Source: Bradymonadia bacterium (lineage in GTDB: Bacteria > Myxococcota_A > Bradymonadia > UBA7976 > UBA1532). Taken from it: a DNA stretch of 64,000 nt. Both the position numbers and the translations under genes were made by a program. Positions within the stretch are counted from its first letter, which is position 1. Every line of letters begins with the position of its first letter. Where the stretch lies: the NCBI GenBank assembly GCA_046290225.1, contig JBKAGE010000048.1, positions 25,304 through 89,303 on the forward strand. The letters are read 5' to 3'. Below, piece after piece: positions 34,868-44,378 of this stretch. The notes under the pieces were generated by a model, which had not been told where the DNA came from, searched no databases, and was given only the letters and a program-made list of their open reading frames with translations.

Positions 34868-34896
34868 ACGTTGAGGTTAGGGTGGCCCCTCCTCGT

Positions 34897-34961
34897 TTAC
34901 AAGTCGTGACTCGACAAGTCGTGACTCGACAAGTCGTGACTCGACAAGTCGTGACTTGTAA
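34897..34961. repeat. Tandem 15-bp quasi-palindromic repeat (ACAAGTCGTGACTCG)x3 plus ACAAGTCGTGACTTGTAA over the ATPase promoter
   Basis: Units start at 34899, 34914, 34929 and 34944; minus-strand TTGTAA-N17-TAACCT-N6-ATG. Confidence 0.85.
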
Positions 34962-34966
34962 TCCTC

Positions 34967-36502
<1,536 letters not shown>

Positions 36503-36589: not shown

Positions 36590-37867
36590 TCAGTCGTCGT
36601 CTCGGGACATCAGGTGGTGGTGAAAATCTCGGGCTTCTTCGGTGGGGAAGTACGCCTCGGGTCTGCGTGTCAGATGATAGCGCCGAAAGGCTGCCGTGAA
36701 GTCCGCAGGATCAGCATCGAACCACGCCTCGAAGTGACCCGAGCCCCGCATCAGTCGGCCGAACCGCAGGTGGGCGACGAGCAGAGATGCCACCTTGATG
36801 CCATCGTGCTGGGCAGGCACGGGCAGGGGCCCAGGTACATCCTCGGGCCAGAGCGCGAGGAGCTTCGATGTGGGGTCCGTGGCGCAGAGCCCATGGAGCA
36901 TGGCCTGTTCGAAACGCGCCCAGCGTGCGGCATCTACAGAGGGGAGTGTGGAGGCGGCTTGAGGGTGGCGGGGCGTGGTTGCGGTGCCATGGGTGTCGAT
37001 GACTGAGCGGGCCCGAGCCATTTCTTCATAGAGCACGGGCACATCAACAGGCGTCACCGTGCCTTCCATGCGCTCGAGGTTCACCAGCTGCAGGTGCGGG
37101 CATCTGGGCAGCACCCACTCCAGCAGATCCCAGACTGGCTCGGGGATGGCGTCGCTGTGGGCATCGAGGCGTACAGTGCGACCCTCGGGCAGCCAGCCCG
37201 GCGGGCTCTCGGCGCCACCAGAGATGTGGATCTCGATGACCTGCCTCAGGTCGAGCTGATCGAGCCAGGCTCGCGGGTCGAAGCCCAAGTTGAGGCCCAT
37301 CGTGTAGACGTTGTGCAGGTCGAGCAACAGATGGCCGCCGGCGAGATCGAGTGTGCGGCGCAGGTGAGCAGGCTCATCGAGTGGATCCCCGAGAGTGAAG
37401 CAGGTCACCGTGTTCTCAACCCCCACCTCGGGCACCACCTGTCGTAGCCGTTGCAATCGGTGCGCGACGACAACGCTGGCGTCTGTGATGGGGGGCAAAG
37501 GCATGGGCTGGGCGAGGTTCTGGCCCAGTGGGGCGCTCAAGCCATGATGATCGGTGTACCAGCGAAAATCGAACTGATGATGTGTCCGGGCGATGGCGTC
37601 GAGCCAGCGATCGAAGCGGGCGCCATCTTCAGTGCTCGCGCTTCCAACAGACAAACCCACACCATGAGCCACACAGGGCTTGCCGGTGCGCTGTTGTAGT
37701 TCGGCGAAGCGTTGGAAGAAGCCGTTTGGGTGCAGAGTGCCGTCCTCGTCAGCGTACCAGAGGGTCTCTGGCGCCACCTCGTACACGTCAGGTACGTGCT
37801 CGATGAGATCGGCGAGCAGATCGAGAAAGCCCTCGTCGGGCTGCAGGGTGAATCCGAGGGCGATCAC
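36590..37867 (-). CDS. DUF692 / multinuclear non-heme iron oxidative enzyme (MNIO) with a fused C-terminal helical domain
   Basis: EVAPE, HGVGLSVGS, TDH, VEN, LLDLHNVY, EIHISGG, DAH and LER iron-ligand motifs; GTG overlaps the upstream stop. Confidence 0.9.
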   Translation of the reverse strand: MIALGFTLQPDEGFLDLLADLIEHVPDVYEVAPETLWYADEDGTLHPNGFFQRFAELQQRTGKPCVAHGVGLSVGSASTEDGARFDRWLDAIARTHHQFDFRWYTDHHGLSAPLGQNLAQPMPLPPITDASVVVAHRLQRLRQVVPEVGVENTVTCFTLGDPLDEPAHLRRTLDLAGGHLLLDLHNVYTMGLNLGFDPRAWLDQLDLRQVIEIHISGGAESPPGWLPEGRTVRLDAHSDAIPEPVWDLLEWVLPRCPHLQLVNLERMEGTVTPVDVPVLYEEMARARSVIDTHGTATTPRHPQAASTLPSVDAARWARFEQAMLHGLCATDPTSKLLALWPEDVPGPLPVPAQHDGIKVASLLVAHLRFGRLMRGSGHFEAWFDADPADFTAAFRRYHLTRRPEAYFPTEEARDFHHHLMSRDDD

Positions 37868-38814
37868 CACTTGTCGTCCAGAGCATAGAAGTTCAAGAAG
37901 CGCCGACCTGCATCCGGTACGTAGCCCAGGCCGCACATCTGGCCTTGTTGGTATTCAACGACAGGATCTGGATGCTCGACGTGCTCACCACAGTGGGTAC
38001 GCACTGCCCACAGGGCAGAGCGGACGGGGATTTTGTGATCTCGGGTGCGGCGATACACCAGCTCGGCGAGGGCGATTTTGAGAGACATCCAGTGAGGGGC
38101 TTCACGGGCTGTCACAGCCTGATAGACCAGAGCTGCCCCTGCTTCGATCTGTTCAGCGCCCAGCGTCTCGCCCGCAGAGAGAGCAGCGCGAATCATCTCG
38201 GCCTCCTCACCGAGCGCTACAGTGGCTTGTGCCACATAGACGTCGAGCCGATCAGGCAGCTGAAGCGTGGCCAGCATCTGGCGTCCGGTGAAGTTGAGTT
38301 GAGCGCCATAGACTTGGGGCAACAATTTGGATGCCCGTGGCCTCGGATCCGGATCAGCGTCGTCGAAGAGTCGACGCAGCTCGCTGGGGGTCCCGAGCTC
38401 GAGGGCGTCCACCATGCCGTACGCTCGCATTGTGTCGGTGTCTACGCGCACCAGCAGTGGATCCTCGACTTTAAAATCAGGAAACACCTGCTGCAGGGTG
38501 TGTCTACGGGCAGCGATGATGTCGCACAGCGCCAACGGGGCGATCAGGTCAGGCCCGGCGTGCATGAAAAACTCACCCCACACTCGACCCCGATCGTAGC
38601 CCACACCATAGCGATCATCGGGCACCACCAGAATGAGAGCAGGGCGCCCTGCGGTGCGGGCAGAGGCGAGCACCTCACGCAGGCGCGTGAGATCATCAGG
38701 CTCGTAGTTCAAGAGATCGAAGATCGAGGCGCGCAGCGTCCGTGGGGTGGCGGTGACGAGGCCTGCGGCGAAGCCCATCAGGCCCTTGAGGGTGGTGCGC
38801 CGGTCGACCTTCAT
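37864..38814 (-). CDS. Tat-exported protein, paralog A (candidate MNIO substrate)
   Basis: MKVDRRTTLKGL twin-arginine signal; C-terminus HCGEHVEHP...MCGLGYVPDAGRRFLNFYALDDKW. Confidence 0.8.
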   Translation of the reverse strand: MKVDRRTTLKGLMGFAAGLVTATPRTLRASIFDLLNYEPDDLTRLREVLASARTAGRPALILVVPDDRYGVGYDRGRVWGEFFMHAGPDLIAPLALCDIIAARRHTLQQVFPDFKVEDPLLVRVDTDTMRAYGMVDALELGTPSELRRLFDDADPDPRPRASKLLPQVYGAQLNFTGRQMLATLQLPDRLDVYVAQATVALGEEAEMIRAALSAGETLGAEQIEAGAALVYQAVTAREAPHWMSLKIALAELVYRRTRDHKIPVRSALWAVRTHCGEHVEHPDPVVEYQQGQMCGLGYVPDAGRRFLNFYALDDKW

Positions 38815-38852
38815 CACACACCTCCCTGGTGCCTGTGCCGTCTATATCCGGG

Positions 38853-39854
38853 CTACCACTCGTCTTTGCTCACGTAGAAGTGCAAAAAACGGGACGTCTT
38901 CGCCGGCACATGGCCCATGCCACAGCCCACCGCCACCATACGGCGGCCGAACTTCACCTCGCCATCTTCAGGCTCGGGCTCGGGCGGATACTCGATGCGG
39001 GTGCCACAGCCCCCGGAGTTGGCCCACAGCACCCCTGCTGGGGTGTGGAAGTCCTTCATGCGGGCGTGCACCACGGGGGCGAGCATGGCCCCAGCGAAGT
39101 CGATGGTGGCGGTCTTCGAGACGTGGTGCACATGGTGCAGCACCACCGCGGCGCCTGCGGTGGCGAGATCGAGGGGCACTGTCTGCCCATCGTCGAGGTA
39201 CTGCTTCAGGGTGCTGCGCTGAAGGGGCGTCATGGCCGCCTGAGCCTGCTCGGCATACCCGGCCATGCGCTCGGTGTGCACTCCGAGCAGGTCGCTGAAT
39301 TGCTCGGCGATGACCGCGATGCGGCTCTCGACGAGCTCGGACTCCTTCTGTGATCGCTCTTCCCACGTCAGCTTCGCCGTCTCCGGCGTCGCCATGCGCG
39401 GGTTGTACGTGTCGGGGAGCTTGGCCATGGGCCCGTCGAGGCGGTGCACCGTAGCGGGCACCTCGTGGGTGTCCACCACCACCGCCATGGCCTCTTTGCT
39501 GCCCACCTGAGGCACCACGGCCTTGAGGGTTTTGTGCTTCACCGCCACGATCTCGGCCATGGCCAGGGGGGCGAGGTGGTGTGGCCGCCCGTGGTTGAAG
39601 AACGAGCCCCAGGCGCGGCCACGGGTGTAGCCCTCGGTGTAGTCGTCCTCGGGGATCACCAGCACCAGCAGTGGGCGTCCGGCCTTGCTCGCCCGCTTGT
39701 AGGCGCCCATGAGCACAGCGCGCTCCTCATCGGCTGTGCAGCAGTCGTCATCGGCCTTGGGCCCTGCAAGAGCGGTCTGCACCCAGCCCGGCGCCACGGC
39801 GAGGCCTGCGACGAAACCAGTGAGCCCCAGGAACTTGCGTCGATCCGCACGCAT
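38853..39854 (-). CDS. Tat-exported protein, paralog B (candidate MNIO substrate)
   Basis: MRADRRKFLGL twin-arginine signal; C-terminus GCGTRIEYP...GCGMGHVPAKTSRFLHFYVSKDEW; TGATG overlap with the upstream gene. Confidence 0.8.
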   Translation of the reverse strand: MRADRRKFLGLTGFVAGLAVAPGWVQTALAGPKADDDCCTADEERAVLMGAYKRASKAGRPLLVLVIPEDDYTEGYTRGRAWGSFFNHGRPHHLAPLAMAEIVAVKHKTLKAVVPQVGSKEAMAVVVDTHEVPATVHRLDGPMAKLPDTYNPRMATPETAKLTWEERSQKESELVESRIAVIAEQFSDLLGVHTERMAGYAEQAQAAMTPLQRSTLKQYLDDGQTVPLDLATAGAAVVLHHVHHVSKTATIDFAGAMLAPVVHARMKDFHTPAGVLWANSGGCGTRIEYPPEPEPEDGEVKFGRRMVAVGCGMGHVPAKTSRFLHFYVSKDEW

Positions 39855-40846
39855 CACTCCACCTCCATCATCATGGGAAACGGTTGCTCGGGCGACACGA
39901 TGGCCGGACGCCCCTCGTGCAAGCCCACCTGGGCTACACTCACCCAATCATCGGCACCAGTGAGGACCAGCCGGCCTTCGTCGTCGCGGTCGTACGCACC
40001 GCGGATCACCGTCTGGTTGCCCTTGGCCTTCTTGCACAACGAGAAACGCCCCGCGGCGTCGAGGATGAGCCGGCTGCCATGCGCATCGACATACTCACCC
40101 ACCCAGTCCACCGGACGGATATGTGTACCCTCCACAGGCGTGATCTCGGTGGGACGGGCTCTCCCTACCAGCCCGAGGCCCATCGCGCCACTGCCTGTGC
40201 GGCCGTCGATGTTGGGATCACCAGAGAGGTTGCCCAGCGTGGTGGGCGCGTCGAACACCGAGCCACCTTGCTGATCGTAGAAGGCGGCCAGCTCGTCTTT
40301 GGAGCTGAACTCGACCTGTGCGGGGCGGGGGCCGGTGTGCACCACCACGCGGCCTGGGCCACCAGCGTACAGCACCGGTGAGATGCCACGCAGATTGTCC
40401 GGAGCCTGCACCATGGCCGAGAGATATGTGGCCTCAGGGGCGTCGACGGCCCATCGACCGTTCACCTGCGTGGCCTCGCCACCGATTTGGTCAGCCAACG
40501 ACTTCGCCGCCCCCTGGCCCCCATTTACCCAGAGACGGTCTGTGGCGCCGAGGATGGTTGGGCGAGCGTCGGCGCCTTGCAGCCACAGGACCTGCTGAGG
40601 CTCGAGCTGAAGCAACTGCCGTACTCCAGGGCCCACGAGCCAGACCTCTTCATCTGCATAGGCTGCGTAAGGCAGCGGGCCCTCGTAGCGCTCGCCGGCA
40701 GTCTCCACGGCATAACCTGCAGATCGGGCCTCTTCATCGAGGAGCACGAAGCCCGTGCCCTCGGGGTCTGGAGCATCGCACGAGAGCATGCACAGGCTCG
40801 CGAAGGCCCAGGCTGCGGGCCGCGCGATGGCAGAGCGAATCTTCAT
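39854..40846 (-). CDS. Hypothetical lipoprotein, first gene of the MNIO operon
   Basis: GGAGG RBS, lipobox-like MLSC, translational coupling to paralog B. Confidence 0.75.
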   Translation of the reverse strand: MKIRSAIARPAAWAFASLCMLSCDAPDPEGTGFVLLDEEARSAGYAVETAGERYEGPLPYAAYADEEVWLVGPGVRQLLQLEPQQVLWLQGADARPTILGATDRLWVNGGQGAAKSLADQIGGEATQVNGRWAVDAPEATYLSAMVQAPDNLRGISPVLYAGGPGRVVVHTGPRPAQVEFSSKDELAAFYDQQGGSVFDAPTTLGNLSGDPNIDGRTGSGAMGLGLVGRARPTEITPVEGTHIRPVDWVGEYVDAHGSRLILDAAGRFSLCKKAKGNQTVIRGAYDRDDEGRLVLTGADDWVSVAQVGLHEGRPAIVSPEQPFPMMMEVE

Positions 40847-43709: not shown

Positions 43710-44378
43710 TTACTCCGCGACCAAAGGTACACTCAACCCGATCGGGCACGTCACCCCCGTACCACCCAGCCCGCAATACCCATTCGGGTTCTTCGCCAAG
43801 TATTGCTGGTGATACTCCTCAGCATAGTAGAACGTCGGCGCATCCAACACCTCGGTCGTAATCGTCCGCGCGTGTCCCGCTTCATCCAACGCCGCGCCGT
43901 ACATCTCCAGCGAAGATTGCGCCGCCGATTTCTGGGCCTCGTCGTACACGTAGATGCCTGAGCGGTACTGTGTGCCTACGTCGTTCCCCTGGCGCATGCC
44001 CTGGGTTGGATCGTGGTTCTCCCAGAACACCTTCAGCAACCCCTCGTAGCTGATCTTCTGCGGATCGTAGACCACAAGCACCACCTCGTTGTGGCCGGTC
44101 ATGCCCGAGCAGACCTCCTGATAGGTGGGGTTGGGCGTGTACCCCGCGGCATAGCCCACAGCGGTGCTGTGCACCCCAGAGGTCTGCCAGAACTTGCGCT
44201 CGGCCCCCCAGAAGCAGCCCAGGCCGAACATCGCCGTGGCCATGCCCTCGGGGAAGGGAGCCTTGAGGCGGTTGCCGTTGACGAAGTGGGCCTCAGGCAC
44301 GGGCATCTCCGCCTCGCGGCCGGGGAGGGCCTTCTCTGGCGTGGGCATCTGCTTCTTGCGGGGGTCGGTGAAGAACAT
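43710..44378 (-). CDS. msrA: Peptide methionine sulfoxide reductase A
   Basis: [40 protein letters not shown] and [12 protein letters not shown] motifs. Confidence 0.97.

Follow-up and report, generated by a model that had tools for sequence, protein, structure and literature searches.

Enzymes of the ChrH/DybH/MelH subfamily of oxidative enzymes that depend on multinuclear non-heme iron (MNIOs) turn the motif CPxCGxG into a hydantoin and a thioaminal macrocycle, with a mass change of -4 Da (PMC13056109). Chemistry begins at the second Cys; ring closure by the first Cys is the final event (PMC13733907, PMC10214503). DybH tolerates the sequence CPPCGMG, the one-residue insertion CPAACGMG and a GFP fusion (PMC12636315). 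In PMC13056109 the function of ChrH-type products is stated as unknown, small clusters from Myxococcota and Planctomycetota are mentioned, and MelH, together with a separate MelHc, is described as modifying MelA1 of Melainabacteria, a 34-kDa tetratricopeptide repeat (TPR) protein that is secreted by way of a signal peptidase I (SPI) signal and carries CPACGMG at its C-terminus. That an MNIO can act on a large secreted protein has already been published. Here we analysed a 64,000-nucleotide stretch of a Bradymonadia genome (GCA_046290225.1, contig JBKAGE010000048.1, positions 25,304 to 89,303; called the window below), in which four genes between positions 36590 and 40846 encode a lipoprotein, two related full-size proteins with twin-arginine translocation (Tat) signals, termed paralog B and paralog A, and an MNIO, P0004. 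A preliminary description of this locus had implied that such a system was without precedent, which the MelH/MelHc example contradicts. Its central proposal fared better: because of reciprocal co-occurrence, Cys conservation, loss of the motif in orphan copies and a model of the complex, we consider the paralogs very probably to be substrates of the MNIO, with their tail cysteines as its target.

The locus resembles the ChrH/DybH/MelH systems in several ways. In both, the MNIO is accompanied by a small C-terminal domain, either fused or separate, and a two-Cys motif with CG[ML]G lies near the substrate's C-terminus, relatives of the window paralogs even carrying CPxCGxG. The substrates are diverse in their N-terminal parts and include a secreted protein of over 30 kDa, and the enzymes occupy neighbouring positions in a tree. 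In contrast, ChrH/DybH/MelH substrates bear Sec/SPI or SPII signals and the paralogs a Tat signal; MelA1 has a TPR scaffold and the paralogs a predicted thioredoxin-like one; and the spacing of the two Cys is 3 in the former, whereas it is mostly 14-21, and up to 38, in the paralog family. Also unlike the described systems, the paralogs' motif is internal and succeeded by a conserved RFL element (the follower), the locus holds a conserved lipoprotein, P0004 is about 30% identical to the ChrH-type enzymes, and its partner domain has no detectable similarity to the ChrH bundle. What is new relative to the MelA1 precedent is the Tat route, the thioredoxin-like scaffold, the internal motif with a fixed follower and the Cys spacing of 14–38 residues. 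Bufferin (BufABC) and oxazolin (HvfABC) systems likewise have signal-peptide-bearing MNIO substrates whose Cys are modified before export, the gene order precursor, MNIO, partner, tandem precursors and some long precursors (PMC12452194). Their Sec signals, DUF2063 partners, frequent DoxX and copper binding (PMC12452194) were not seen at this locus: searching the four genes with Pfam and NCBIfam models turned up no DUF2063, DUF2282 or DoxX and no EGKCG-type precursor, and none of these was found among the conserved neighbours at 46 related loci. We found no description of this protein family, or of a Tat-exported, thioredoxin-like MNIO substrate, in the non-subscription literature, and PMC13056109, PMC12636315 and PMC12452194 nowhere use the words 'Tat', 'twin' or 'thioredoxin' in their main text; the supplements of PMC13056109 may list some members of the P0004 subfamily, and those of PMC12452194 contain a genome-count row for Sorangium.

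Paralog B (P0002; 39854-38853, minus strand) comprises 333 aa, and paralog A (P0003; 38814-37864, minus strand) comprises 316 aa from its ATG, or 317 from a GTG at 38817; the size of about 320-330 aa first given for both is slightly too large for A. The two putative substrates are 31% identical (E 7e-38) and, as first described, have a twin-arginine signal, an N-terminal block and a C-terminal Cys tail in common. Their architecture is the same, with a predicted thioredoxin-like domain that lacks CxxC, a helical insert and the two-Cys tail. In paralog B the tail (38856..39026, minus strand) contains W277, Cys283, a spacing of 28 residues, Cys311-Gly-Met-Gly and the follower R322-F-L-x-F-Y; in paralog A (37867..38010, minus strand) it contains W269, Cys275, a spacing of 19 residues, Cys294-Gly-Leu-Gly and the follower RFL-x-FY. 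Across the family the motif reads W-x5-CG…CG[ML]G-x7-RFL and sits 22 residues from the C-terminus (median; range 18-44). The W-x5-C spacing, found in 196 of 212 database proteins, replaces the W-x4-C reported earlier, and the terminal D-x-W that had been counted as part of the motif is, judged by the tails of relatives, no feature of the family.

The paralogs have no Pfam or NCBIfam family match, and the family to which they belong is large. Its hidden Markov model (HMM) matches paralog A at E 1.7e-65. A word-indexed database contains 76 family matches, and a set of representatives at 50% identity contains 552 with E ≤ 0.001, so the tail motif lies far beyond chance; cultured carriers include Sorangium, Minicystis and Chondromyces. 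Conservation was counted over 150 rows selected from 212 family sequences, which had been gathered with the whole protein as query, a procedure that favours the tail motif without requiring it. Both tail cysteines proved to be conserved (Cys283 in 149/150 rows, Cys311 in 148/150), as were Gly312 and Trp277 (each 150/150) and Arg322 (148/150), and the scaffold positions G83, P68 and N87 are strongly kept as well. His315, which comes after the second Cys motif, is present in only 122/150 rows. The family has further cysteines outside the tail: column 104, in paralog B numbering, is Cys in 130/150 rows and Ala in paralog B itself, and columns 38 (64/150) and 100 (48/150) are partly Cys.

The signal of paralog B (39765..39854, minus strand) contains the twin-arginine sequence DRRKFL and an AxA cleavage-like site at residues 28-30. 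Arg5 and Arg6 are present in 145 and 146 of the 150 rows, and the pattern RR-x-[FLWAV]-[LFIVM] in 170 of 188 representatives under 70% identity, most of the others appearing truncated. TIGR01409 matches 21/150 family members at E ≤ 0.05, paralog B not among them, and the signal of paralog A, DRRTTLK, lacks the usual Phe. TatC scores over its cut-off in the source genome. The AlphaFold model of paralog B (pLDDT, the local distance difference test as predicted, 86.6; predicted template modelling score 0.83) has a domain at about residues 42-205 that resembles DsbD-c, DsbH, Thioredoxin_7 and AGR2/3, a helical insert at 208-268 and then the tail. Thioredoxin-family rows led the fold search, the best with Z 5.7, rmsd 3.1 and 112 aligned residues, below the mark of 8; the Atlas leads were all thioredoxin-like, with scores of 0.76-0.78 (under 0.9), and Foldseek gave no match at E ≤ 0.001. 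Compared with these known proteins, the paralogs lack the CxxC with which the second helix would begin (there is no Cys in residues 62-88 of paralog B or in the family consensus), and they have no Pfam match and Z values of only 4-5.7, and they carry the helical insert and Cys tail in addition. The model is consistent with a thioredoxin-like scaffold without CxxC.

The preliminary description had suggested that co-occurrence with the MNIO (DUF692) be examined with an HMM. The family HMM matched 14 of 401 genomes of the phylum at E ≤ 0.001, or 12 once G182 and G385 were excluded as short partial matches, and an MNIO search of the same 401 genomes found 52 at E ≤ 1e-20. MNIOs at least 42% identical to P0004 over the available stretch occurred in exactly the same 12 genomes, adjacent to the family in all 12, and in 0/389 others. 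The distribution of the system is patchy, since it was found in none of 17 other genomes from the window's own family. At 47 GTDB loci (10 of them Sorangium and 3 repeats of the phylum sample), picked by the pattern [AG]CGMGHVP so that their Cys conservation is circular, an MNIO lies downstream in 44, and in the remaining 3 genomes the cognate MNIO is on another contig (372-471 bits). The reverse test, on the best 80 of 343 MNIO-anchored metagenome loci, found a family match upstream of the MNIO at 73/80, some of them weak (17-45 bits) and checked by eye; of the other 7, 4 had no upstream DNA, L135 and L176 had no family match, and L199 had divergent copies downstream. The coupling of paralog family and MNIO is therefore reciprocal. 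The elements shared across the 46 loci are limited to the paralog family, the lipoprotein and the MNIO with its partner; no protease, copper or transport gene is conserved among their neighbours. At one locus, L072, the family and MNIO genes are split over several frames, and the other strand carries another copy in fragments, which may be an assembly error.

Variation in the tail points to the part that the enzyme would read. The Cys-to-Cys distance ranges from 3 to 38, whereas the second Cys is 11 residues from the follower Arg in 139/146 tails (picked by regular expression, with a few spurious frames). The short spacing CxxCG[MLR][GA] occurs in 15 distinct tails, 12 of them CPxCGxG, and tails of short and long spacing stand together beside one enzyme at 7 loci. 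The tail also occurs without the scaffold. At L140/L141 a 78-aa leader peptide (L140:3021-3257) with two more relatives besides a near-copy precedes an MNIO of the P0004 subfamily, and exported-looking peptides of 80 aa (L154:1632-1874) and about 96 aa (L192:1905-2195) with the same tail do likewise. The leader at L140/L141 is of what we take to be the double-glycine type; those at L154 and L192 are Sec-like and lipobox-like, so that the short precursors are of three kinds and may be new peptides of the kind made by ribosomes and modified after translation (RiPPs). Judged from these sequences, the tail is a portable unit and probably the substrate element that the enzyme reads. Conversely, orphan paralogs at L042 (L042:8846-9685) and L043, in one genus and away from any MNIO, keep the Tat signal and scaffold and have lost both Cys motifs; such stand-alone copies may reveal the role of the unmodified scaffold. 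In line with the preliminary description, a tail HMM run over 224,354 stop-to-stop frames, a search that recovered 2/3 short control peptides at E < 0.001, detected no short precursor bearing this tail in either the window or the source genome. In the source genome it matched only the two paralogs (E 7e-11 and 3e-6; next 0.36). Regular-expression candidates for a short precursor elsewhere in that genome were rejected as chance frames.

The MNIO gene (P0004, 37867-36590, minus strand) encodes 425 aa. Its catalytic domain (36995..37867, minus strand) matches PF05114 over residues 53-289 with 117.8 bits (Pfam cut-off 25), and H68, H107, E151, D183, N186, H214, D235, H237 and E265 are invariant in 36/36 aligned enzymes, the iron-ligand residues matching those of a ChrH-type Hymenobacter enzyme; the DybH ligands are numbered H65/H102, D179/H210 and D228/H230 (PMC13733907). 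The gene had been described as a plain DUF692 gene, which overlooked a fused partner domain of about 115 aa behind the PF05114 domain (about residues 305-425; 36590..36955, minus strand), with the core DG-x6-L-x3-LRFERL. In most related loci this domain is its own open reading frame (ORF) right after the MNIO gene, and elsewhere it is fused; the slot directly after the MNIO is the usual position of an MNIO partner (PMC12452194). An Atlas search for the domain was led by SCO6045_C and MbnC-like entries (0.81-0.85), which we treat as leads only. Four more, distant MNIO genes lie at C79, C77, C40 and C82 of the source genome.

We modelled P0004 with three irons and residues 262-333 of paralog B. 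The complex scored 0.72, against 0.00 for the best of 3 controls; the mark for this score, only roughly applicable here, was reached by 116/157 solved and 2/215 mismatched pairs. The runs shared at least 57% of contacts, with a partner pLDDT of 44-51. On the question raised in the preliminary description, the second-Cys segment is predicted to reach the iron site: the contacts that residues 300-317 and 319-328 make with the enzyme take in H68, H107, D235, H237 and E265. F323, F326 and Y327 contact P0004 residues 362-412 with the lowest expected error in the model (1.2-2.3 Å), which would make the partner domain the binder of the RFL follower. In the monomer model of paralog B the tail has a pLDDT of about 80 (54 at residues 301-310) and appears to pack on the folded thioredoxin-like domain. 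In a mean-field covariation analysis of 331 sequences (effective number 275), 8 of the top 45 pairs join tail to scaffold, and E288-R322 and I287-H325 covary within the tail; the C283-C311 signal (z 4.7) was left unused, as near-invariant columns mostly report joint loss. The residues predicted to bind the partner domain in the complex are the ones that appear packed against the scaffold in the monomer; we therefore consider it more likely that modification comes ahead of the folding-in of the tail than that it acts on an already folded protein, as was first proposed. This order also fits Tat export of a folded product.

Kinship of the enzymes was assessed in a tree of 61 sequences (26 of the P0004 subfamily, 10 ChrH-type, 8 Myxococcota MNIOs and 17 other MNIOs), with a midpoint root only. 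The first three groups together split from the 17 others at 100/99, and the P0004 subfamily's own group was weakly supported (67/48). On these sequence comparisons we place P0004 next to the ChrH group and not within it. The ChrH-type references came from a Hymenobacter plasmid locus with a ChrA-related precursor, since running the ChrH model NF050165 over 14 control genomes gave no usable reference. That precursor (L214:2210-2377, Hymenobacter volaticus plasmid NZ_CP095062.1), which scores over the NF050125 cut-off and is not in the PLSDB gene table, lies upstream of the ChrH-type MNIO. Just upstream of 4/8 of the Myxococcota MNIOs that group with ChrH (L105 in G152, L106 in G270, L116 in G400 and L205 in G401) are Pro-rich ORFs with CGMG or CGRG as their last residues, of which three (L105, L116 and L205) are without the first Cys of CPxC and would give a ChrH-like product without a ring.

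Taken as a whole, the reading that we consider probable is a ChrH-type -4 Da modification of the tail Cys, with ring closure by the distant Cys, after which the protein would fold, be exported by Tat and present a reactive thiol. The MNIO and its fused partner domain would, in the cytoplasm, grip the RFL-x-F follower of each full-size paralog, and the fixed 11-residue distance from follower Arg to second Cys would set Cys-Gly-Met/Leu on the iron centre. The second Cys would be oxidised by four electrons, most likely as by ChrH/DybH/MelH; given that the paralogs are substrates, we consider ChrH-type chemistry likely. A thioaldehyde would then rearrange with the next two backbone amides to a hydantoin, and the first Cys would close the ring. 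That Cys is predicted to lie on a beta-hairpin, close in space to the second though 19 or 28 residues off, with the variable loop between them bulging out so that both Cys remain near each other. The modified tail would pack on the thioredoxin-like scaffold, the folded protein would leave by Tat, and in the periplasm the modified thiol site, probably redox- or metal-reactive, may have the lipoprotein as its membrane partner, the weakest step of the scheme. In its fullest form, in which the follower-guided MNIO installs a hydantoin and thioaminal cross-link over 14-38 residues of a full-size protein that is then folded and Tat-exported, and the resulting cofactor, a free thioaminal thiol, replaces the lost CxxC, the proposal is possible though doubtful.

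Several observations weigh against this interpretation. The published case of an enlarged ring involves a single inserted residue, not 11-35 (PMC12636315), and the window paralogs, with spacings of 19 and 28, do not contain CPxCGxG. The ChrH-type enzymes and the 8 Myxococcota MNIOs form their own clade at 100/99 with the P0004 subfamily outside, and kinship with ChrH is drawn from a single tree in which branches are long and the ChrH rows, mostly Hymenobacteraceae, are biased in composition. P0004 reaches only 101.6 bits with NF050165 (cut-off 600), close to its scores with the BufB (95.7) and HvfB (90.7) models; its relatives score similarly (79-111 bits for 8), and a genuine ChrH-type enzyme, from Hymenobacter and paired with a CPACGMG precursor, falls short of the cut-off too, yet at 400 bits is far closer. 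The identity of P0004 to ChrH-type enzymes (28-36%) is no higher than that to other MNIOs (27-40%), and comparison of its partner domain with the C-terminal bundle of 60 ChrH-type tails gave an hhalign probability of 0.3%. A paralog beside an MNIO at L049 (L049:1680-2444) has lost both tail Cys, and those at L126, L136 and L138, three in tandem, have one Cys only and a longer follower. In the complex model Cys283 is outside the confidently placed residues, the 72-residue fragment has an uncertain fold of its own, and the favourable score may partly reflect solved MNIO-partner-substrate complexes (TglHI and MbnABC) in the PDB. The assignment of the paralogs as Tat substrates, finally, is drawn from the signal motif.

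The same substrates may instead undergo a different chemistry, with a thiooxazole or oxazolone-thioamide on one or both Cys, as in bufferins, oxazolins or methanobactin, or a hydantoin without the long ring, and the protein would thereby acquire a site for copper or another metal. We judge this unlikely. Both tail Cys are followed by Gly, as in EGKCG; the BufB and HvfB scores are close to that of ChrH; the CGMG and CGRG ORFs that lack a first Cys imply that some members of the wider group do without ring closure; and the long Cys spacing would hinder it. Set against these points are the CPxCGxG tails beside enzymes of the same subfamily and the tree position apart from the 17 other MNIOs, although bufferin and oxazolin enzymes are separated from the P0004 subfamily there only if those 17 are of that type. 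The lack of a conserved DUF2063, DoxX or copper gene nearby and the incomplete conservation of His315 also count against it, and the copper link first suggested for the locus is further weakened by the absence of a known function for ChrH/DybH chemistry.

That the paralogs are not substrates at all is improbable. The Cys pair would then form a structural disulfide or a metal site, with the proteins serving as receptors, carriers or chaperones for the product of a precursor encoded elsewhere. The well-folded thioredoxin-like model, the covariation and secondary structure that place both Cys in one region and would equally suit a disulfide, the short precursors at L140, L154 and L192 and the Cys-less paralog at L049 all accord with this view. 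Those short precursors bear the same tail, though, which implies that the enzyme reads the tail; none was found in the source genome, within the imperfect sensitivity of the search; CGM is the reactive sequence of ChrH (PMC13733907); and loss of the motif in orphan paralogs and the complex model speak against it as well. Still more improbable is that the large protein is a carrier or leader whose modified tail, like the cleavable C-terminal core of the preliminary description, is cleaved away once exported to yield a small RiPP: release is plausible for the L140 peptide with its double-glycine-type leader, as we take it to be, whereas no conserved protease is present at the 46 loci, the tail covaries with the scaffold and is placed on it at a pLDDT of about 80, and scaffold residues G83, P68 and N87 are strongly conserved.

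The remaining gene of the set encodes the lipoprotein (40846-39854, minus strand), a protein of 330 aa with a lipobox Cys23, an N-terminal beta domain, a disordered linker and a predicted C-terminal lipocalin-like beta-barrel. Cys23 is invariant in 20/20 aligned rows, and a homologue was found at 38/60 loci (L031-L090) by iterative HMM search, with duplicates and close kin counted. In the structure model (pLDDT 69.9), residues 245-330 correspond to a lipocalin-like barrel (versus 4gzv: Z 9.6, rmsd 2.6, 86 aligned). No conserved metal ligands were seen in the lipoprotein, and it has no Pfam or NCBIfam family match. The ORFs bear out the co-oriented four-gene operon described previously, in the order lipoprotein, paralog B, paralog A, MNIO on the minus strand, with a TGATG overlap between lipoprotein and paralog B (39852-39856), a gap of 35-38 bp between paralogs B and A, and a GTGA overlap between paralog A and MNIO (37864-37867). 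GGAGG sites lie 5' of the lipoprotein, paralog B and paralog A genes. A promoter scan of the region gave 0 promoter-like sites, and terminator-like sites (5, versus 2.5 ± 1.9 expected) were uninformative. A gene for a DUF362 protein (34967-36502, minus strand) lies 88 bp downstream of the MNIO gene on the same strand; we rejected it as a member of the system, as it is absent from the conserved neighbours of the 46 loci. Short tandem repeats and a duplicated element of about 90 bp, noticed through ORF translations, lie at about 34890-34960 and 43710-43950, downstream of the DUF362 gene and ahead of one resembling msrA.

The paralog-MNIO gene set very probably brings a new, widespread protein family under a type of protein modification that was described only recently, and a widespread, unannotated family becomes a testable biosynthetic system. 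Its conserved folded scaffold, conserved lipoprotein and culturable hosts offer a route to the function of ChrH-type products, and natural Cys spacings of 3 to 38 beside one enzyme probe the maximum ring size that an MNIO can close. If the proposed mechanism is true, the enzyme would make large rings at internal sites of any protein that carries a 25-residue tag, and such a follower-read internal tag would be a useful tool for protein cyclisation. It would also mean that Myxococcota, Planctomycetota and Acidobacteriota have periplasmic cofactor proteins of a new class.

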